A DNA stretch of 63,627 nt, counting the filler, from an uncultured Myxococcia bacterium (GTDB taxonomy: Bacteria; CAZTWC01), in assembly GCA_964617105.1 (NCBI GenBank). It is 3 parts of 3 records of this genome, joined end to end, with 100 filler letters (N's around TTAATTAATTAA, not from the genome) between each part and the next. Parts side by side here need not be neighbours in the genome. Positions count along the whole stretch, not along the records: positions 49,081 to 63,627 come from CAZTWC010000069.1; 2 more parts are not named here. The stretch is one strand, 5' to 3'. Under the pieces are notes generated by a model that saw nothing but the letters and a program-made list of their open reading frames with translations, did no database searches and had not been told where the DNA came from. Below, piece after piece: positions 50,034-63,557 of the stretch (the stretch's first letter is position 1; the number at the start of each line of letters is the position of its first letter). The position numbers were made by a program, and so were the translations under genes.

Positions 50034-50450
50034 TTGTTTGATACCAGAAACAAATTAACTGAAGATTCGCCGTTGCCGCCGGATGGATGTACCGCCCTGG
50101 GAAGACACTTGACCATTGAGTATTATCGATGTACTTCAAAAGTCCTCTTAAATGAAGTCCTGGTTGAAAAGGCGTTGTTAAAAGCCGCTAATGAGAGTGG
50201 CGCCACTATTATCAACTCCTCCTTTCATAACTTTAATCCTCCGGGCGTAAGTGGAGTTGTTCTGATTGCCGAGTCCCATTTTACGGTGCATACCTGGCCC
50301 AAATACCATTATGCCGCCGTAGATATTTTCACTTGCGGAGAGAGCATAGACCTGGAAAAAGCCATAGATTCCATGAAGAGATCATTTGAATCGGATAATG
50401 TCTTCATTTCTTCTGATCAAAACCGGGGGATTATTACTAAGGGCGCTTAA
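50034..50450 (+). CDS. speD: S-adenosylmethionine decarboxylase proenzyme
   Basis: LGRHL, GVSGVVLIAESHFTVHTWP, AAVDIFTCG. Confidence 0.9.
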   Translation: MFDTRNKLTEDSPLPPDGCTALGRHLTIEYYRCTSKVLLNEVLVEKALLKAANESGATIINSSFHNFNPPGVSGVVLIAESHFTVHTWPKYHYAAVDIFTCGESIDLEKAIDSMKRSFESDNVFISSDQNRGIITKGA

Positions 50451-50493
50451 TTTGTGTACCTCGTTCACTGTGAGAGTGCAGGCGCCGAACTCC

Positions 50494-51027
50494 TCAACTG
50501 TTTTTTACTGCCTGGGAAAAAGGTGCATAGGCCCGCTGGTATTGGCGGGTATCCCGGAGGAAAGCCTTGGCAGGAGCCACATTTTCCGGATCAAAGGGAT
50601 CGAGCCGGGACAACTCGGTTTTGATGGCTCGGTGCAGCCGCCAGGCCATATCTCTGGCCGGCCCGAAAAGGGAAGATGAACAGGTTACGTCCATGAACAG
50701 GTGTCCCTCACCTTTACCCTTTTCCACCAGAGGGGTAATAGTCAGGGCCTGCTTCAGCAACTCCCGCATTCCCAGGGCGTAGAGCCCGTGGTTGGGAGGC
50801 AGCACTATCGCTCCCGGACAACGGTGGTGGGCCCGGGAAAGGAGCATCCCTTTGCGCACTCCTTCTTTGAAGGCCTCGTTGCTCATATCAAACACCAGAG
50901 CCCGGGCGATTCCAGCCGGCGCCACCACCACAGGCCGGCGTTTGAGAGAGGGGTCTTCGGCCTGCTCCATGGCCACTGCGAAGTGGGCGGCATTGATATG
51001 AATAATACGGCGATTTTGGATAAACAT
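50494..51027 (-). pseudogene. Truncated Y-family polymerase homologue (ImuB/DinB-like N-terminal fragment)
   Basis: RIIHIN..FAVAME..PSLKRRPVVV..GVRKGM..CP..TPLVE..GHLFMDVT; catalytic acidic residues absent; ends after ~175 aa. Confidence 0.7.
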
Positions 51028-51253
51028 GCTAATATCAGGCTGAAAAATTAAAGTTCGCTCCAAGATAGTATATTTACTACCCATCTTTAAGTTAGCACAC
51101 AAATGAGTGGTTTGCAGGTGAAGGTTGGAATTCTTGAGCTGTCATCCCCAGAAATTGGTTGAATGAATTATCATATAGTGGCAAGATATGTTCTTAATTT
51201 GTAGAATAAGGTTTAATCTTCTACGCCCGTTGCATACGGCCAGGAATCTAAAA

Positions 51254-52771
51254 ATGATAATTTATCGAGCAGTTATAATTTTGTTGATCCTGTTTTCATA
51301 TTCTTTCTATATATTTGCTCAGCCGGCAGAGGAATGGGATTTTAACGGCAAAGAGGATGAGTGGGTGGTAAAATTTATCTCCCAACCAGCCGGGGCAGTG
51401 GTGCTAAAGGATGGGGTGCTGTTATGCGCCAAGACTCCATGTTCAAGGCTGCTGACCAAAGGCAGGTGTGAAATATCCATGCAGGCGGAAGGGTATTTGG
51501 AACAGAGGAGGTCTATTTCAATTAGAAAGCATGAGATGATTTCCTGGAAACTGTTGCCCAATTTTGGCCTGCTGACAGTAAAGTCGGAGCCTGCCGGGAT
51601 CGATGTCAGTATAAATGGCGAAAATGTAGGACAAACACCACTTGTACGCAAGGAGATAGCGCCAGGAGGTTACCAGGTGTTGGCGACTTCACCTTGCTAT
51701 TACGATTCGGGTAAATTGGTGCGCATAAGTCGCGTTGGGGAGCATCAACAGGTTGAGTTTAAGTTAAACGAGCGTTACGGCGGAATCAAGGTAACGGCTG
51801 AGGATACTAAGGGCAACGCTTTAGAGGCCATGGCTTATGTGGATGGCAACTTTCTGGGTAATGTTCCCGGTAAATACAAGATATCGGTATGCGCAAGTGA
51901 TTTGGTGGTGAAAAGTTCCGGGTTTTTAAGTTTTCATACCAAGTTGGCCTTGCAGGAGAAGAAAGTAACCAGGATAACCGCCCGGTTTGATAAAATTGGC
52001 AAGCCCATGGAGTATATTTATTTCAAAGGAGGTTCTTTTTGGATGGGCAGCCGAACCTATGAAAAGGGGCGGGATTTAGATGAAACCAGACATCGGGTGA
52101 GATTAACCTACGGCTTTGATATGCTGCGTACCGAAGTTACTCAGGGGCAATACCTGGAGATTATGGGGTACAATAATTCTTATTTCTCCTTATGTGGTCA
52201 TGATTGTCCAGTGGAGAATGTCAGCTGGCATCAGGCGCTGCAGTTTTGCAATAAACTATCGCTCAGTAAGGGATATAAAGCCTGTTTTAATTGTTCTGAC
52301 AACAATAATAGCCAAATCATCTGTAAACTGAAAAAGAATTATAAAAAACCTCAAGATTGTCCGGGATTTCGTTTGCCCACCGAGGCGGAGTGGGAGTATG
52401 CCGCCAGGGCGGGTTCTAAGACCGCCTATTACTGTGGTAATAACAGCCGGTGTTTGGAAAAAATAGGCTGGTATTTTGGCAATTCAAAAAGCAGTACCCA
52501 CCGGGTAGGTCAGAAAAAGGCTAATGCCAGGGGTCTGTATGATATGAGCGGAAATGTATGGGAGTGGTGTTGGGACTGGTATTGGGACTATAGCCTCAAG
52601 GTGTTGGATCCAGTGGGACCGGCAGCAGGTTCTGGCAGGGTGGTAAGAGGAGGTAGTTGGCCAGGGATCGCCAAGTTTAGTCGATCTGCCAGCCGGGGCA
52701 AAGATTCGTCCGGGCGGCGTGGCGGTGCTTTGGGTTTTCGGGTGGTGAGGACAATTCCTACAAAACGCTAA
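51254..52771 (+). CDS. Exported PEGA-repeat protein with an FGE-sulfatase (SUMF1/C-type lectin fold) domain
   Basis: SQPAGA and SEPAG PEGA repeats; RLPTEAEWEYAARAG, GLYDMSGNVWEW, RGGSW..GFR. Confidence 0.9.
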   Translation: MIIYRAVIILLILFSYSFYIFAQPAEEWDFNGKEDEWVVKFISQPAGAVVLKDGVLLCAKTPCSRLLTKGRCEISMQAEGYLEQRRSISIRKHEMISWKLLPNFGLLTVKSEPAGIDVSINGENVGQTPLVRKEIAPGGYQVLATSPCYYDSGKLVRISRVGEHQQVEFKLNERYGGIKVTAEDTKGNALEAMAYVDGNFLGNVPGKYKISVCASDLVVKSSGFLSFHTKLALQEKKVTRITARFDKIGKPMEYIYFKGGSFWMGSRTYEKGRDLDETRHRVRLTYGFDMLRTEVTQGQYLEIMGYNNSYFSLCGHDCPVENVSWHQALQFCNKLSLSKGYKACFNCSDNNNSQIICKLKKNYKKPQDCPGFRLPTEAEWEYAARAGSKTAYYCGNNSRCLEKIGWYFGNSKSSTHRVGQKKANARGLYDMSGNVWEWCWDWYWDYSLKVLDPVGPAAGSGRVVRGGSWPGIAKFSRSASRGKDSSGRRGGALGFRVVRTIPTKR

Positions 52772-52799: not shown

Positions 52800-54296
52800 C
52801 TAAGGCATTGACCTCACGACACGTAAACCCAGGCGGGGGTGACGGGTGATGGGCGATTTGCTGCTGCGAGACGCCGACCGGCATTTGCGGGCTAAGTCGT
52901 CCCAACTACCGCCGCGCATAACCCGTTTTTGTGTGTCACTAGAAGGTCCCACAGGGTCTGTTACATCTCCTCCATAACTATCATACCAATCCCACGCCCA
53001 CTCATCAACATTGCCGCTCATATCATACAATCCCCCGGTATTGGCATCTTTGCTTCCCACATCATGTGTCGTAGCATCGAAATTATAACAATACCATCCT
53101 ATCTTATCAAGATTGGGATCATGTTTACAAGAGTACCCTGAAGAAGTAATCCCACCATTATAAAACGCCGTAGTCGTACCCGCACGAACTGCATACTCCC
53201 ACTCCGCCTCTGTGGGTAATCGATAGCCACTGCAATCCTGTGGTTTGCTGAACTTGGACTTTAAACTGCATGTCAAACAAGTTACGTCACAATATCCACG
53301 ACGGCACGGAGCCTGACTGCAATCTCCTGTACAGTCAAAACATTCTTCAACTCCTTTACTAATAGACAATTTGTTGCAATATAATAACGCTTCATGCCAA
53401 TTCACCTTCTCTGCCGGACAATCATCTCCACAAGATGAAAAATAACTAGGATTATAGCCCATCAATGATTTAAACTGACCCTGTGTCACCTCGGTGGACT
53501 GCATCTCGAAGTTGTACGTCAACGTCACCAGGTGCTCAGTTTCATTAGAATAGCGGCCAGCCTCGCCAGAGGGGCTGCCCATGGTAAAGGTGCCCTTGGT
53601 AATGCTTACAAATCCGGGGGTTATACCACTTGAACCATCTTTACAATTCGAGTTATCATACCCAGTACAGTCACTCTTGCACTTAGCATCTCCGCTTGTA
53701 TATGTTGAATTTATGTCCTTACAACCCTTTGTGTCACCGTCACAGACTTCATTTTTGCCTTTATGACCATCTCCACACACTGTTTGGCATTTTGAATCCT
53801 TACATTGCAAGGGCTCAATACAATTGGCAGTTTGGGAACATGTATCACCCTCAACACTATTTGTAGTAGTCGGCTGACAATTACCATTTATACATTTCTC
53901 TTTCTCCCCACACTCCTTATCCTCTGCATAGCCACTTTCGTCCGACTTGCACACCATAACCTTATTGCCATCGCATTTTTTCTGGCCAGCGGTACAGATT
54001 TGATCTTCACTCCCACCATCTGTATTTCCCGAGTTACCTTCTTTACTCCCACCATCTGTATTTCCCGAGTTACCTTCTTTACTTCCGCCATCTGTATTGC
54101 CAGAGTTACCTTCTTTACATACACAAATATCCCATCCACTTCCATCTGATTTACAGGCCTGAACACCCTTTTGAACAGCAGTACAGTTACAAACCTGCGT
54201 TGCACTTGGCGTACAAGCCTTGTCAACCTCAGTTCCGCAGTTTGCTAAAAACAGACTCAGAGCAATCAATAAAAACATTGTGAATGATTTTTGCAT
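52800..54296 (-). CDS. Cys-rich lipoprotein with a C-terminal FGE-sulfatase domain
   Basis: Lipobox LANC; Cys-rich stalk; RLPTEAEWEYAVRAG, GLYDMSGNV, RGGSW; AGGAG RBS. Confidence 0.9.
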   Translation of the reverse strand: MQKSFTMFLLIALSLFLANCGTEVDKACTPSATQVCNCTAVQKGVQACKSDGSGWDICVCKEGNSGNTDGGSKEGNSGNTDGGSKEGNSGNTDGGSEDQICTAGQKKCDGNKVMVCKSDESGYAEDKECGEKEKCINGNCQPTTTNSVEGDTCSQTANCIEPLQCKDSKCQTVCGDGHKGKNEVCDGDTKGCKDINSTYTSGDAKCKSDCTGYDNSNCKDGSSGITPGFVSITKGTFTMGSPSGEAGRYSNETEHLVTLTYNFEMQSTEVTQGQFKSLMGYNPSYFSSCGDDCPAEKVNWHEALLYCNKLSISKGVEECFDCTGDCSQAPCRRGYCDVTCLTCSLKSKFSKPQDCSGYRLPTEAEWEYAVRAGTTTAFYNGGITSSGYSCKHDPNLDKIGWYCYNFDATTHDVGSKDANTGGLYDMSGNVDEWAWDWYDSYGGDVTDPVGPSSDTQKRVMRGGSWDDLARKCRSASRSSKSPITRHPRLGLRVVRSMP

Positions 54297-55341
54297 AATT
54301 AAGACTCCTGTAAGATTTCACATTAGTTGATATAAATTAAAGCATAAATCACATCACTAATGCAAGCAGTATGATATTTTTCATACACATGCCCAGAAGT
54401 TTCTTCATACTGTGCAGTAGTTGCAATTTCTATATCACCACTAACCACACCGATATTTACAGGGATTTTAAATCTACAAGCGCCGACTGACTCCCCAAAG
54501 CAGACCAAAAACAGAAAAATTCTCAGACTTTTTAGAGACTATTCTGAGACTTCTCTTTTCCGTTTTCGGGTTGGGACCGATACGGTCTCAACGCTCCTAG
54601 AAATTGGCAAATCTCTGGTTAACAGCGACAGCGAATATGTTAATACCCATTCTCCGCTGACCAACTGCTGGGTCTTTGATGTCCACTGTTTGCCCCTTCA
54701 CTTCACCTCCTGTCACCTTCAACTTGCGTTTATTTTCAAAGAACTTTTGGCCGCAAAAACGATCAATTTTTCATGTTTTGTGGTGTCTCGCTCGTGGTTG
54801 GCAAGTACAGTGAGGATTATTATCTTGGGCATAAATCGGAATGGGTGATGGGAGATGACCAGGAGTGTGGAATGTGAGTTTGAAATTTTTCGGTAATTAT
54901 GATAATTGTCAAAAACAACTTGATGCCTGAATTTATATTGTTTGAAATATTCCCAGTGAGGTGATTATGCGTAAGTTATTTGGATTGAGTTTATTAGTTT
55001 TTTTGAGCATTGTTTTGACTTATTGTGGTTCATCAAGTGATGGCAAAAAGACTTGTGAATCGGGTGCAACGCAGGTTTGTAACTGTACTGCTGAGCAAAA
55101 GGGTGTTCAGGCCTGTAAATCAGATGGAAGTGGCTGGGATATTTGTGTATGTAAAGAAGGTAACTCTGGCAATACAGATGGTGGGAGTGAAGAAGGTAAC
55201 TCGGGAAATACAGATGGCGGTAGTAAAGAACAAATCTGTACCGCTGGCCAGAAAAAATGCGATGGCCAAAAGGTGATGGTGTGCAAGTCGGACGAAAGTG
55301 GCTATGCGGAGGATAAGGAGTGCGGGGAGAAAGAGAAATGT
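53892..55341. repeat. Long inverted repeat pair, 53892-54205 and 55064-55341
   Basis: Near-identical sequence on opposite strands (314 vs 278 bp); the difference is one 36-bp unit. Confidence 0.93.
54009..54116 (-). repeat. 36-bp coding tandem repeat x3 (KEGNSGNTDGGS); x2 in the copy at 55153-55224
   Basis: Units 54009-54044, 54045-54080, 54081-54116. Confidence 0.93.
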
Positions 55342-55356
55342 CAGGAGGTCAAATAA
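54967..55356 (+). pseudogene. Truncated paralogue of the 52800 lipoprotein (different signal peptide, no FGE domain)
   Basis: Lipobox LTYC; ~90 aa almost identical to the 52800 stalk; homology stops at 55341, directly at the next gene's AGGAGG. Confidence 0.75.
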
Positions 55357-55357
55357 T

Positions 55358-56287
55358 ATGCCAGGGATTGGAGTAGTATCAAATCCAAACTCCCGACAGA
55401 ATCGCAAAAATCCAAGGCGGATCCCTATCCTGGGATATATTGTCGGTGAAATGGGGGCTAATGAGGCTACCAAGGATGTGGATGATATCAACAGAGTGGC
55501 GGTAATTTTCAAACAGCATGATATAGATATCCTATGCCTCAATGGCGGTGACGGAACCAACCACTGCACCTTAACCGCTTTTATTAAGGCATATAAAGAA
55601 AAGCCCTTGCCTCTGATAGCTTTTTTGCGCGGCGGAACCATGAACACTATCTCCAATTCTATCCGGATAAAGGGCAACCCCGCCTCTATCTTACATAACA
55701 TTGTGGAGAAATACCATTACCATGAGCCTTTTCAGTTGGTAGAGCGAGATACCATAAAAATTGGCGATGATTATGGCTTTATTTTTGGCAATGGTGCCAC
55801 CTACAACTATCTGGATGAGTATTACAGTACTGGAAATCCCTGTCCATGGGTGGGATTTACTACTTTGGTGAGGTGTCTAACCGCTGTTGTTACCCGTAAT
55901 GCCATGTTCAAGAGGTTGGTAAAACCTTTTAATGCTGAGGTTTATGTTGATGGTAAAAAATGGCCCCATTCGACTTATATCGCGGTTTTTGGTGCCACCA
56001 TCGAGCAGTTGGGTCTTGGTTTCAAGCCCTTTCATCGCTGCGATGAGCAGTCCAGAACTTTCCATTTATTGGGAGTGGTAGGTTCACCATTGCAGACATT
56101 ACGTCATTTTCCTACCATGTATAAAGGGAAGCAGGTTCCCAGAAATGTGATGATAGATGCAGTGGCCAAAAAGGTTAAGTTTCGTTCCCGGGAGCCTATA
56201 AACTATATGATCGATGGTGATTTGCACCAGGGGGGCAATAGTTTGGATCTGGAAGTGGGGCCGCGGTTAAAACTGATAGTCCAGTGA
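55358..56287 (+). CDS. Diacylglycerol/lipid kinase family protein
   Basis: NPNS, NGGDGT, GGTMN, IDGD; AGGAGG RBS before the ATG at 55358. Confidence 0.88.
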   Translation: MPGIGVVSNPNSRQNRKNPRRIPILGYIVGEMGANEATKDVDDINRVAVIFKQHDIDILCLNGGDGTNHCTLTAFIKAYKEKPLPLIAFLRGGTMNTISNSIRIKGNPASILHNIVEKYHYHEPFQLVERDTIKIGDDYGFIFGNGATYNYLDEYYSTGNPCPWVGFTTLVRCLTAVVTRNAMFKRLVKPFNAEVYVDGKKWPHSTYIAVFGATIEQLGLGFKPFHRCDEQSRTFHLLGVVGSPLQTLRHFPTMYKGKQVPRNVMIDAVAKKVKFRSREPINYMIDGDLHQGGNSLDLEVGPRLKLIVQ

Positions 56288-62219: not shown

Positions 62220-63557
62220 TCAATAATATTTGGTAAAACTTGTTACTATATCTCGGAGCAGGTCCTCCACCTCTATATTGTTCCGGGAGGCAATTTGGAT
62301 CAGGTTGTCATACTCCATTTCTGAGAATTTTAACGGTAATTCCTGGTTTAAATGTGCTTCCCGGTTGAGAGCTTTTACCTGCGATTCAACAATTTCCTCC
62401 GCATCTTCTATAATTTCGATATCGTCTGAAATATTTTTTCCAGTCTCCGAGTCCTTCAGTTCTGTATAACCGCCGGAAGAAAATTGTTGAGTGGCAGAAA
62501 TCTTTAATTTGCTTATTTTGCCTTTTATCCTTTTTTTGTCCCGTTCCATCTCCTGGTTGAACAACTGGCGGATAAAATTAGCCAAATGGAGATTGCTGGG
62601 GGTGAAAATATGTTGGGATAAAAAGGAATCTATATCGTATTGCATATCCCAGGCGTTTTTGTAGCGTTGGCGTTTGTCGNNNNNNNNNNCCAGGGCTTTC
62701 ATAATAATATGTTCAACTGCCTCGGGAATATCAGCCTTAAAGTAACTGGGCGGGTATATTTTTCCTTCCATTACCGACTTGAGAATCTGCATTTCGTTAT
62801 CACCGGTAAATATTTTATACCCGGTCATCCACTCGTAGAGAACTACCCCCAGGGAGAAAATATCGGAACGATGATCCAGGAGTTCGGCCCGGCATTGCTC
62901 AGGTGACATGTAACACAATTTTCCTTTGATTTCGCCGGCTTTGGTATGCTCCAGTTGAGTATGAGCCTTGGCTATACCGAAATCGGTGATTTTTACATTA
63001 CCGTCAAAAGAGACCATGATATTTTCCGGTGAAATATCACGGTGAACAATGGTTAACGATTTTCCTTCGGCATCGGTTTTGTTGTGGGCGTAATATAGAC
63101 CCTCGCAGACGCTGCTGGCTATCTTGAGGGCGTATTCCATAGGAAAGGGGATCTCCAACTCCTGCGAGCGGGGGAAAATTTGGCGCATGTCGCGGCCAAA
63201 GACGTATTCCATGGCAATGAAGTGCCATCCGTGCTGCTGGCCCACTTCGTAGACGCCCACCAGGTTTGAGTGGCGCAGCTTTGCGGCAACCTGCGCTTCA
63301 CAGAAGAACCGCTCCGTATCCGCCTGCGTGGCCTGCTGGCCCGCCAGGATCATCTTCACGGCGGCGATGCGGTCGAGGCCTTTTTGCTCGGCCCGGTAGA
63401 CGATCCCCATGCCGCCGCGCCCGATTTCGTCGAGGAGCACGTAGTTGCCGATGTCCGTTCCCTTGAGCGGTGGCCAGACGATCTTCTCGCGTATGATGGG
63501 ACGGACGGGGGCTCTGCGATCCGAGTTCTCAGCGAGAACTGTCTCCGTTCCGGTCAT
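62220..63557 (-). CDS. Hanks-type Ser/Thr protein kinase (N gap at 62680-62689; 5' part probably chimeric)
   Basis: GRGGMG, AVK, HRDISPEN, DFGIA, YMSPEQ, DIFSLG. Confidence 0.85.
   Translation of the reverse strand: MTGTETVLAENSDRRAPVRPIIREKIVWPPLKGTDIGNYVLLDEIGRGGMGIVYRAEQKGLDRIAAVKMILAGQQATQADTERFFCEAQVAAKLRHSNLVGVYEVGQQHGWHFIAMEYVFGRDMRQIFPRSQELEIPFPMEYALKIASSVCEGLYYAHNKTDAEGKSLTIVHRDISPENIMVSFDGNVKITDFGIAKAHTQLEHTKAGEIKGKLCYMSPEQCRAELLDHRSDIFSLGVVLYEWMTGYKIFTGDNEMQILKSVMEGKIYPPSYFKADIPEAVEHIIMKALXXXXDKRQRYKNAWDMQYDIDSFLSQHIFTPSNLHLANFIRQLFNQEMERDKKRIKGKISKLKISATQQFSSGGYTELKDSETGKNISDDIEIIEDAEEIVESQVKALNREAHLNQELPLKFSEMEYDNLIQIASRNNIEVEDLLRDIVTSFTKYY

Follow-up and report, generated by a model that had tools for sequence, protein, structure and literature searches.

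Two divergently transcribed lipoprotein genes in the genome of an uncultured Myxococcia bacterium (GenBank assembly GCA_964617105.1) carry different leaders in front of a common stalk, which is encoded by a pair of inverted repeats (hereafter arms), and had been interpreted from the sequence alone as a phase-variation switch. Our analysis indicates that the structure is real and of a known and common kind, but that it is probably a static, albeit recombination-prone, head-to-head pair of paralogues and not a programmed switch. The arms have likely been kept alike by past recombination between members of the gene family, and flips of the interior between them are probably rare by-products rather than the work of such a switch. 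The window, that is, the whole analysed stretch of 63,627 nucleotides, consists of three contigs joined by N spacers; the locus lies on one of these, C69 (CAZTWC010000069.1; 14,547 bp), which extends 4.8 kb to the left and 8.3 kb to the right of the arms. The source genome (G000), detected in marine metagenome runs from two studies, is a draft of 4.07 Mb in 489 contigs (N50 12 kb) and is the sole representative of its phylum in the genome collection that was searched.

The product of the left gene consists of a signal peptide (ending in LANC), a first cysteine module (Cys module 1), three units of 12 aa, a second module (Cys module 2), a Cys-rich linker and an FGE/C-type-lectin domain. That of the right gene comprises a signal peptide (LTYC), Cys module 1, two 12-aa units, a Cys module 2 that is cut past its fifth cysteine, and a tail of four residues. 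Both genes possess a ribosome-binding site (RBS)-like sequence, an ATG and a lipobox-type signal, and both arms encode the same stalk, namely Cys module 1, the 12-residue units and Cys module 2. Alignment of the arms over 278 bases shows 13 mismatches (95.3% identity), and the left arm has one extra 36-bp unit, with three such tandem units versus two in the right one; the identical runs between the arms are 30, 38, 54, 28, 36 and 32 bp long. Outside the tandem units the arms show drift, as 9 of 204 nt differ, affecting four codons synonymously and three non-synonymously. Homology between the two genes begins abruptly at the inner arm edge: the DNA for the signal peptides is identical at 35 of 60 positions, the first part of the arms at 104 of 107. 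A crossover at any point of the arms preserves the reading frame in both products, and the arms are bordered on their outer sides by the FGE body (left) and by four codons, a stop and a lipid-kinase gene (right). A genome-wide BLAST search listed three intra-contig inverted pairs of at least 80 bp; since the other two are 76% identical and lie 15–17 kb apart, the arm pair is the only close and highly similar inverted pair of the assembly and is not due to chance.

Much of what the sequence-only reading had described is borne out by these data: two alternative lipoprotein leaders inside inverted repeats of ∼280 bp, an interior of ∼860 bp (858 bp by our count), a flip of which would keep the frame (one of the two predicted products, as we now find, equals a database protein), a left gene that alone runs into the FGE domain (PF03781), and a right gene that stops on the kinase RBS. 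Likewise, no recombinase gene is nearby, as six of the recombinase matches of the genome, used as tblastn queries, gave no match on C69. The stalks, which had been called near-identical, are indeed shared, but the likeness has to be corrected to 95% with one extra unit on the left. What has not been borne out is the phase-variation switch itself: the matching protein may be an assembly chimera, its reciprocal counterpart was not found, C69 has no recombinase, the arm edge has no dyad, and the asymmetry of the pair is 0.06, compared with a published threshold of 0.87.

As judged from its sequence, the right gene is a truncated paralogue, because its Cys module 2 has five cysteines, versus six in all 40 homologous stretches (from 11 proteins); these had been selected by requiring the first three cysteines and coverage, the sixth cysteine not being required. 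The sixth cysteine is present in the left gene as well. The right protein ends four residues after the fifth cysteine, and its stop codon (TAA, 55354–55356) overlies the RBS region of the kinase gene, the ATG of which is at 55358; the two genes are likely co-transcribed. The missing cysteine directly supports the deleted paralogue that the sequence-only reading had offered as its alternative, and a third paralogue with a mosaic pattern of its own fits the same picture. At the right junction (55339–55344, compared with 53874–53894), the sequence resembles that of the left gene with 15 bases removed from between a pair of similar hexamers, after which three more bases match; this possibly reflects a microhomology deletion, for which three bases are weak evidence.

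The third paralogue, on contig C335, is full-length, with a left-type leader and an FGE body, and is devoid of the 12-aa units and of Cys module 2. It matches the left gene at 60 of 60 nt in the signal peptide, at 53/60 and 55/60 in Cys module 1 and, in windows along the body, at between 31/54 and 59/60; upstream, the homology of the two peters out ∼40 nt 5′ of the ATG. The start of Cys module 1 is common to the left and right genes, from which C335 differs there by 6 mismatches in 30 nt. Taken together, the three genes are a sharp-edged mosaic, in which an upstream motif of 33 bp is shared by the right gene and C335, the leader by the left gene and C335, and the stalk by the left and right genes. 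Because one partner of this mosaic resides on another contig, we infer that exchange among family members, and not a local flip alone, shaped the three genes. The upstream motif may represent a promoter or operator. An orphan stalk-plus-FGE body was not found elsewhere in the genome.

These patterns could be explained by duplication of a single ancestor that comprised a promoter, a leader, a stalk and an FGE body. The C335 copy would then have lost Cys module 2 along with the repeat units, and the right copy would have been deprived of its body by a deletion ending at the kinase RBS. Gene conversion would have homogenised different segments between different pairs, and the upstream region of the right gene would now drive a short lipoprotein together with the kinase. 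The database protein that matches a flipped product (P0003, see below) would have arisen as a chimera during the assembly of a sample with thin coverage. A swap between the arms would alter no more than the signal peptide and some ten residues of the mature protein, and therefore any effect would be one on expression. In view of the +2 rule for lipoprotein sorting, a sorting switch via that residue was also considered, and was rejected, as both leaders have Gly at +2.

Several observations weigh against a static pair. P0003, encoded by one ENA contig of 739 bp, begins with the left leader, continues with residues of the right type and ends in the short tail. Its sequence is identical to a predicted flipped product, with the crossover within residues 31–40, in the first 30-bp identical run. 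In a Logan contig of one public run (X1) position 53966 is joined to 55266 on opposite strands, as a flip would give, and in another run (X2), possibly the same data set as X1, right-type letters occur within the left arm. P0002, found on two contigs, corresponds to a right gene that has a single unit and one residue of the left type, and since it was reproduced in none of 860 simulated assembly trials, real recombination between the arms may be ongoing. In the same simulation P0003-clean chimeras accounted for only 3 of 24; the toy assembler lacked read pairs, and real chimera rates may be below the simulated ones. Moreover, the left gene lacks the upstream motif common to the other two paralogues, so that a flip could matter, and in three of four published attributes the locus looks like a programmed inversion.

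The public data consist of 8 DNA runs from two studies, available as contigs, with no RNA run among those listed. Four of the 8 runs were examined; the word depth of the locus in them is ∼2–5, the range in which simulated chimeras arise. All flip-type junctions fall within runs of 23–36 identical bases, which are merged by low-k de Bruijn graphs, and the X1 joint falls in a 36-bp run, beyond the resolution of a 31-mer graph. Reads were simulated from the window orientation only, with the paralogue on C335 included, and a toy multi-k graph that handled tips and simple bubbles served as the assembler. The first such simulation yielded contigs with the left leader and short tail in 4 of 40 trials at 4× and 6 of 40 at 6×, and in none of 80 at 10–20×. 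The 860 further trials produced 24 left-leader/short-tail products (three identical to P0003), all of them at 4–6×, and 24 reciprocal ones; none of 200 trials at 8–12× gave a chimera. Because single-orientation toy assemblies yield such chimeras at 4–6×, P0003 is not decisive for a flip. With a single k of 31, no contig passed through the arms in 160 trials, and Logan contigs are therefore unable to settle the orientation. Eight contig records, which may share samples, show both leader and exit: seven have the pairing of the window (P0001 three times, P0002 twice, P0004 and P0005) and one the flipped pairing (P0003). The reciprocal product, a right-leader/FGE protein, was present neither in near or longer searches, the longer one being weak evidence, nor in a three-member cluster. 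An amplification chimera was considered and rejected, the arms differing at 13 sites.

That a real inversion takes place at the locus is possible but doubtful. One form of it, which we consider unlikely, is that homology-driven exchange at any point of the long arms inverts the interior within the population, with no dedicated invertase; the FGE receptor would then acquire the conserved upstream motif and the right leader, and the kinase would come under the left upstream region. Two different crossover intervals, in the identical runs of 30 and 36 bp, are implied by P0003 and the X1 joint, respectively, as expected of such a process, P0002 is a mosaic, only 858 bp separate the arms, and two genes of the RecA family, neither of them on C69, are present in the genome. 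A precedent exists in the 333-bp and 85-bp repeats of spnIII, which invert without CreX and without RecA (PMC6620402). Nevertheless, all signals of this flip lie in identical runs that short-read graphs merge, products of the P0003 type were simulated without any flip, the right-leader/FGE protein was missing from the searches described above, and frequent exchange would be expected to erase the 13 mismatches. Quite improbable, in our view, is a programmed phase-variation switch, in which a remote site-specific recombinase would act at the inner 30-bp perfect stretch and toggle upstream region and leader between the receptor and the short lipoprotein–kinase operon. The purely right-type residues after the left leader of P0003 do place the crossover in the first 30 bp (a pattern shown by just 3 of the 24 chimeras simulated), the onset of homology at that stretch is abrupt, Pfam matches to 7 tyrosine and 4 serine recombinases are present in the genome, all on contigs other than C69, and some invertible regions are known to have no recombinase in their vicinity (PMC9881135). 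The 30-mer, however, contains neither a dyad nor a repeated site: no stem of at least 5 bp was found in 55051–55110, folding is no better than in shuffled sequences, and no other site in the genome matches the 30-mer with fewer than 6 mismatches. Long arms would be unneeded, both genes retain RBS and signal peptide, unlike in vsa, mba and UU172 (PMC3047005), the X1 joint implies another interval, and variants were seen in only 128 of 6,092 comparable candidate pairs (PMC9881135).

Very improbable is an assembly error at 55341, affecting the end of the right gene or the second arm, such that the organism would have a full-length gene at 54967. The draft is fragmented, a kinase gene near the far end of C69 shows an abrupt jump in GC content (0.39 to 0.62) and an N gap, and unit counts vary between assemblies, the left protein being 498 aa long in one and 486 aa in another. 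Against this, the four-residue tail recurs identically in P0001 (NCBI, JGI/IMG and ENA; three contigs), P0002 and P0003, that is, in proteins of other assemblies, possibly with shared samples; a mis-join at 55341, for which a check had been proposed, is therefore unlikely. The junction is without a repeat able to cause a mis-join, no orphan stalk-plus-FGE body occurs elsewhere in the genome, and simple duplication of a read path is ruled out by the 13 mismatches. Among the pieces listed from the four runs none bridges 55341, which at the low word depth of ∼2–5 carries no weight either way.

In terms of the published attributes of programmed inversion (PMC9881135), the criterion of inverted repeats of at least 44 bp within two oppositely oriented coding sequences (CDSs) compares with arms of 278 and 314 bp and a longest perfect run of 54 bp, the distance between the CDSs is 670 bp (threshold, at most 2588 bp) and orientation matching is 0.76 (threshold, at least 0.58). 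The asymmetry of 0.06 (91 versus 97 bp upstream of the arms) is below the threshold of 0.87, and it is asymmetry, one partner being without its 5′ region, that is described as the strongest predictor of programmed inversion (PMC9881135). CDS pairs of this kind are common, with 120,686 in 35,366 genomes (PMC9881135). The locus is thus like the programmed-inversion candidates and partial intergenic invertons (PMC9881135, PMC10028968) in having inverted repeats inside two oppositely oriented CDSs, and in repeat length, CDS distance and orientation matching; it differs in its asymmetry and the lack of a nearby recombinase, and in that the evidence for two orientations is ambiguous and confined to contigs. 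The 40 'relatives' of the genome share the domain only; four have a kinase homologue (best matches 27–34% identical), and their neighbouring genes are, by eye, unrelated. Searches with the stalk alignment and arm motif in metagenome contigs and with the kinase in genome contigs gave no matches, in a collection that may omit the records of this genome. Look-alikes in an atlas were FGE clusters, most commonly of Myxococcota, and are a lead only.

Inversion is also known for the sap surface-protein genes of Campylobacter fetus, for which our literature search gave no mechanism. As in UU172/mba of Ureaplasma and vsa of Mycoplasma pulmonis, where inversion shifts a promoter, RBS and 5′ part between 3′ bodies, a flip here would exchange 5′ parts; those systems have one 5′ end, silent bodies, repeats of 21–36 nt and a measured switching of 1–2% (PMC3047005), whereas the present locus has two complete leaders, in conflict with a single 5′ end, imperfect arms of 278 bp and one body of four codons. 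Streptococcus pneumoniae spnIII (hsdS) resembles it in having 333-bp and 85-bp repeats in coding sequence that are partly inverted without a local recombinase, and differs in its local CreX, a shared 10-bp core and the swapping of whole specificity domains instead of a signal peptide and about ten residues (PMC6620402). In Lactobacillus acidophilus slpA/slpB an inversion, which takes place between homologous parts of two surface-protein genes in opposite orientation, puts a silent gene behind the active promoter in 0.3% of chromosomes (PMC3666127); both partners are full-length there, unlike the truncated right gene. For a real flip, the nearest mechanistic precedents would be the 333-bp repeat of spnIII or the slp inversion.

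The FGE domain of the left gene product has TvpA of Treponema denticola as the top one (PDB 2y3c, E = 1e-35) of 20 PDB matches. TvpA is a target of a diversity-generating retroelement (DGR; target class 'b', CLec1/FGE) and a binding protein without FGE activity (PMC5758913); it has, like the left protein, a lipoprotein-type leader and a C-terminal FGE/C-type-lectin domain, and TvpA and its remote paralogues are likewise scattered, with accessory protein Avd, reverse transcriptase (RT) and copies resembling template repeats (TRs) in the genome (PMC5758913, PMC4891356). Compared with two TR-like copies, the 3′ segment of the left gene is changed at 18 of 30 A and 15 of 72 non-A positions (p = 2e-4). 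The third base of AAY codons is kept in 8–9 of 12 cases in the left gene and in 9–11 of 12 in C335 and in a gene on C336, compared with 3–5 of 12 in four other FGE genes. DGR machinery is present: Avd on C121 passes NF033474, the RT open reading frame (ORF) on C121 is only 174 aa long, longer RTs are found on C219 and C435, and TR-like copies are located on C121, C484, C476 (with an insertion) and C167. The locus differs from TvpA in having no template with A-only changes: a genome-wide scan for a cognate template gave at best 15 non-A among 33 mismatches, compared with at most 11 non-A differences in the published set (PMC5758913), and the template may have escaped assembly. That the segment belongs to an active DGR target was rejected, as there is no cognate template and the segment is identical in three assemblies (P0004–P0006). 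We read the segment as a former DGR target or the target of an unassembled template, and predict that the left gene encodes a TvpA-type surface protein that binds a ligand and has a tip formerly diversified by a DGR. DGR-like RTs on C219 (164–1669) and C435 (L014, L015) end in a MutS_I domain, and an AAY-rich TR-like stretch of a different class lies just upstream of the RT on C219.

As an N-terminal module of lipoproteins, Cys module 1 is widespread. Matches to the right protein at E ≤ 0.001 were obtained for 179 proteins of the library, and in an alignment of 109 sequences, made up of the left protein and 108 of the 150 listed (picked for N-terminal matches), 28 different Pfam families are represented. 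The module itself, as present in the right protein, has no Pfam or NCBIfam match. In P0008–P0156 it contains six cysteines with the consensus CxPGxTQxCxC...GxQxC...GxxWxxCxC, directly past the lipobox of many different proteins. The Y that precedes the cysteine in the right leader occurs at this position in 3 of ∼120 lipobox-like leaders of the genome. A crude pattern scan of these leaders gave N in 12, F in 9, Y in 3, T in 3 and G, S or A in 88, and the lipobox of this organism may be relaxed.

Within the intergenic gap, two repeated pieces (Table 1), which resemble insertion sequence (IS) ends, could be a sign of earlier traffic of mobile elements; the C16 copy of one lies ∼180 bp past an ORF that resembles a transposase fragment. 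A scan for promoters and terminators was at chance level (11 sites versus 8.6 ± 2.9). To the left of the locus, a PEGA-plus-FGE gene (51188–52771) is convergent with the left gene, which brings two FGE domains tail to tail, with inverted matches of 72–77% between them (52346–52582 and 52983–53246); the PEGA-plus-FGE gene is without the DGR signature (3/12). Further left (50034–51102), an S-adenosylmethionine (AdoMet) decarboxylase gene faces a GC-rich (0.55–0.60) IMS/DinB-like ORF that covers profile positions 3–128 of 148 and continues into an unrelated tail, indicating a broken gene or a junction. At the far end of the contig (62220–63627), a Ser/Thr kinase ORF has a GC content of 0.56–0.62 in its N-terminal part and 0.39–0.43 in the rest, with a 10-N gap at 62680–62689; this may be a chimeric contig end.

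Table 1. Features of the head-to-head lipoprotein locus and of related FGE genes. Positions refer to the window unless a contig is named.
Feature	Position	Strand	Remarks
Left gene, predicted lipoprotein	52800–54296	−	498 aa
FGE-sulfatase (PF03781) domain	52812–53618	−	residues 227–495, E = 2e-41
Variable-region-like 3′ segment of left gene	52821–52925	−	compared with TR-like copies
Left arm of inverted repeat	53892–54205	−	314 bp, coding
Perfect 30-bp stretch at inner edge of left arm	54176–54205	−	crossover interval implied by P0003
Interior invertible by crossover between arms	54206–55063	.	858 bp; two leaders, two RBSs, 670-bp intergenic gap
Left leader and 5′ untranslated region	54206–54336	−	94% identical over 131 bp to C335 paralogue; first 60 coding nt identical
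Repeated non-coding piece	54546–54625	.	82% to C106; short hairpin
Repeated IS-end-like piece	54733–54810	+	copies on C16, C106, C327, C323 and C419, 77–90%
33-bp upstream motif	54875–54907	+	right gene and C335 paralogue, 31/33, equal distance to ATG; absent upstream of left gene
Right gene, predicted lipoprotein	54967–55356	+	129 aa, no Pfam match
Right arm of inverted repeat	55064–55341	+	278 bp, coding
Kinase RBS (AGGAGG)	55343–55348	+	starts one base after right arm
YegS/DAGK-family lipid kinase-like gene (DAGK_cat)	55358–56287	+	309 aa; starts 1 nt past stop of right gene
Other FGE genes with DGR signature	C335:745–858, C336:3809–3922		AAY third-base retention; no cognate template in assembly

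It is rather unlikely that inversion via the coding repeats, without a recombinase, serves as an on/off switch for a DGR-sculpted TvpA-like receptor, which, its gene having lost the upstream motif of the family, would be silent until a flip supplied the promoter and signal peptide of the right gene, the lipid kinase being re-wired at the same time. If this were the case, a single protein would be subject to two systems of variation, in a phylum of which one genome is known, and inversion-based phase variation would be linked to a DGR-type receptor; one literature search, at the level of titles and the beginnings of abstracts of the papers listed, showed no report of such a link. The locus would also add a case from a free-living marine organism to the long-repeat inversions that proceed in the absence of a local recombinase, the mechanism of which is still unexplained at spnIII. 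If, on the other hand, the genes are a static pair of paralogues, the locus would be of little significance, as divergent paralogues with inverted repeats are common. In either case, the example of P0003 shows that a database protein matching the predicted product of a flip can be made by an assembler.

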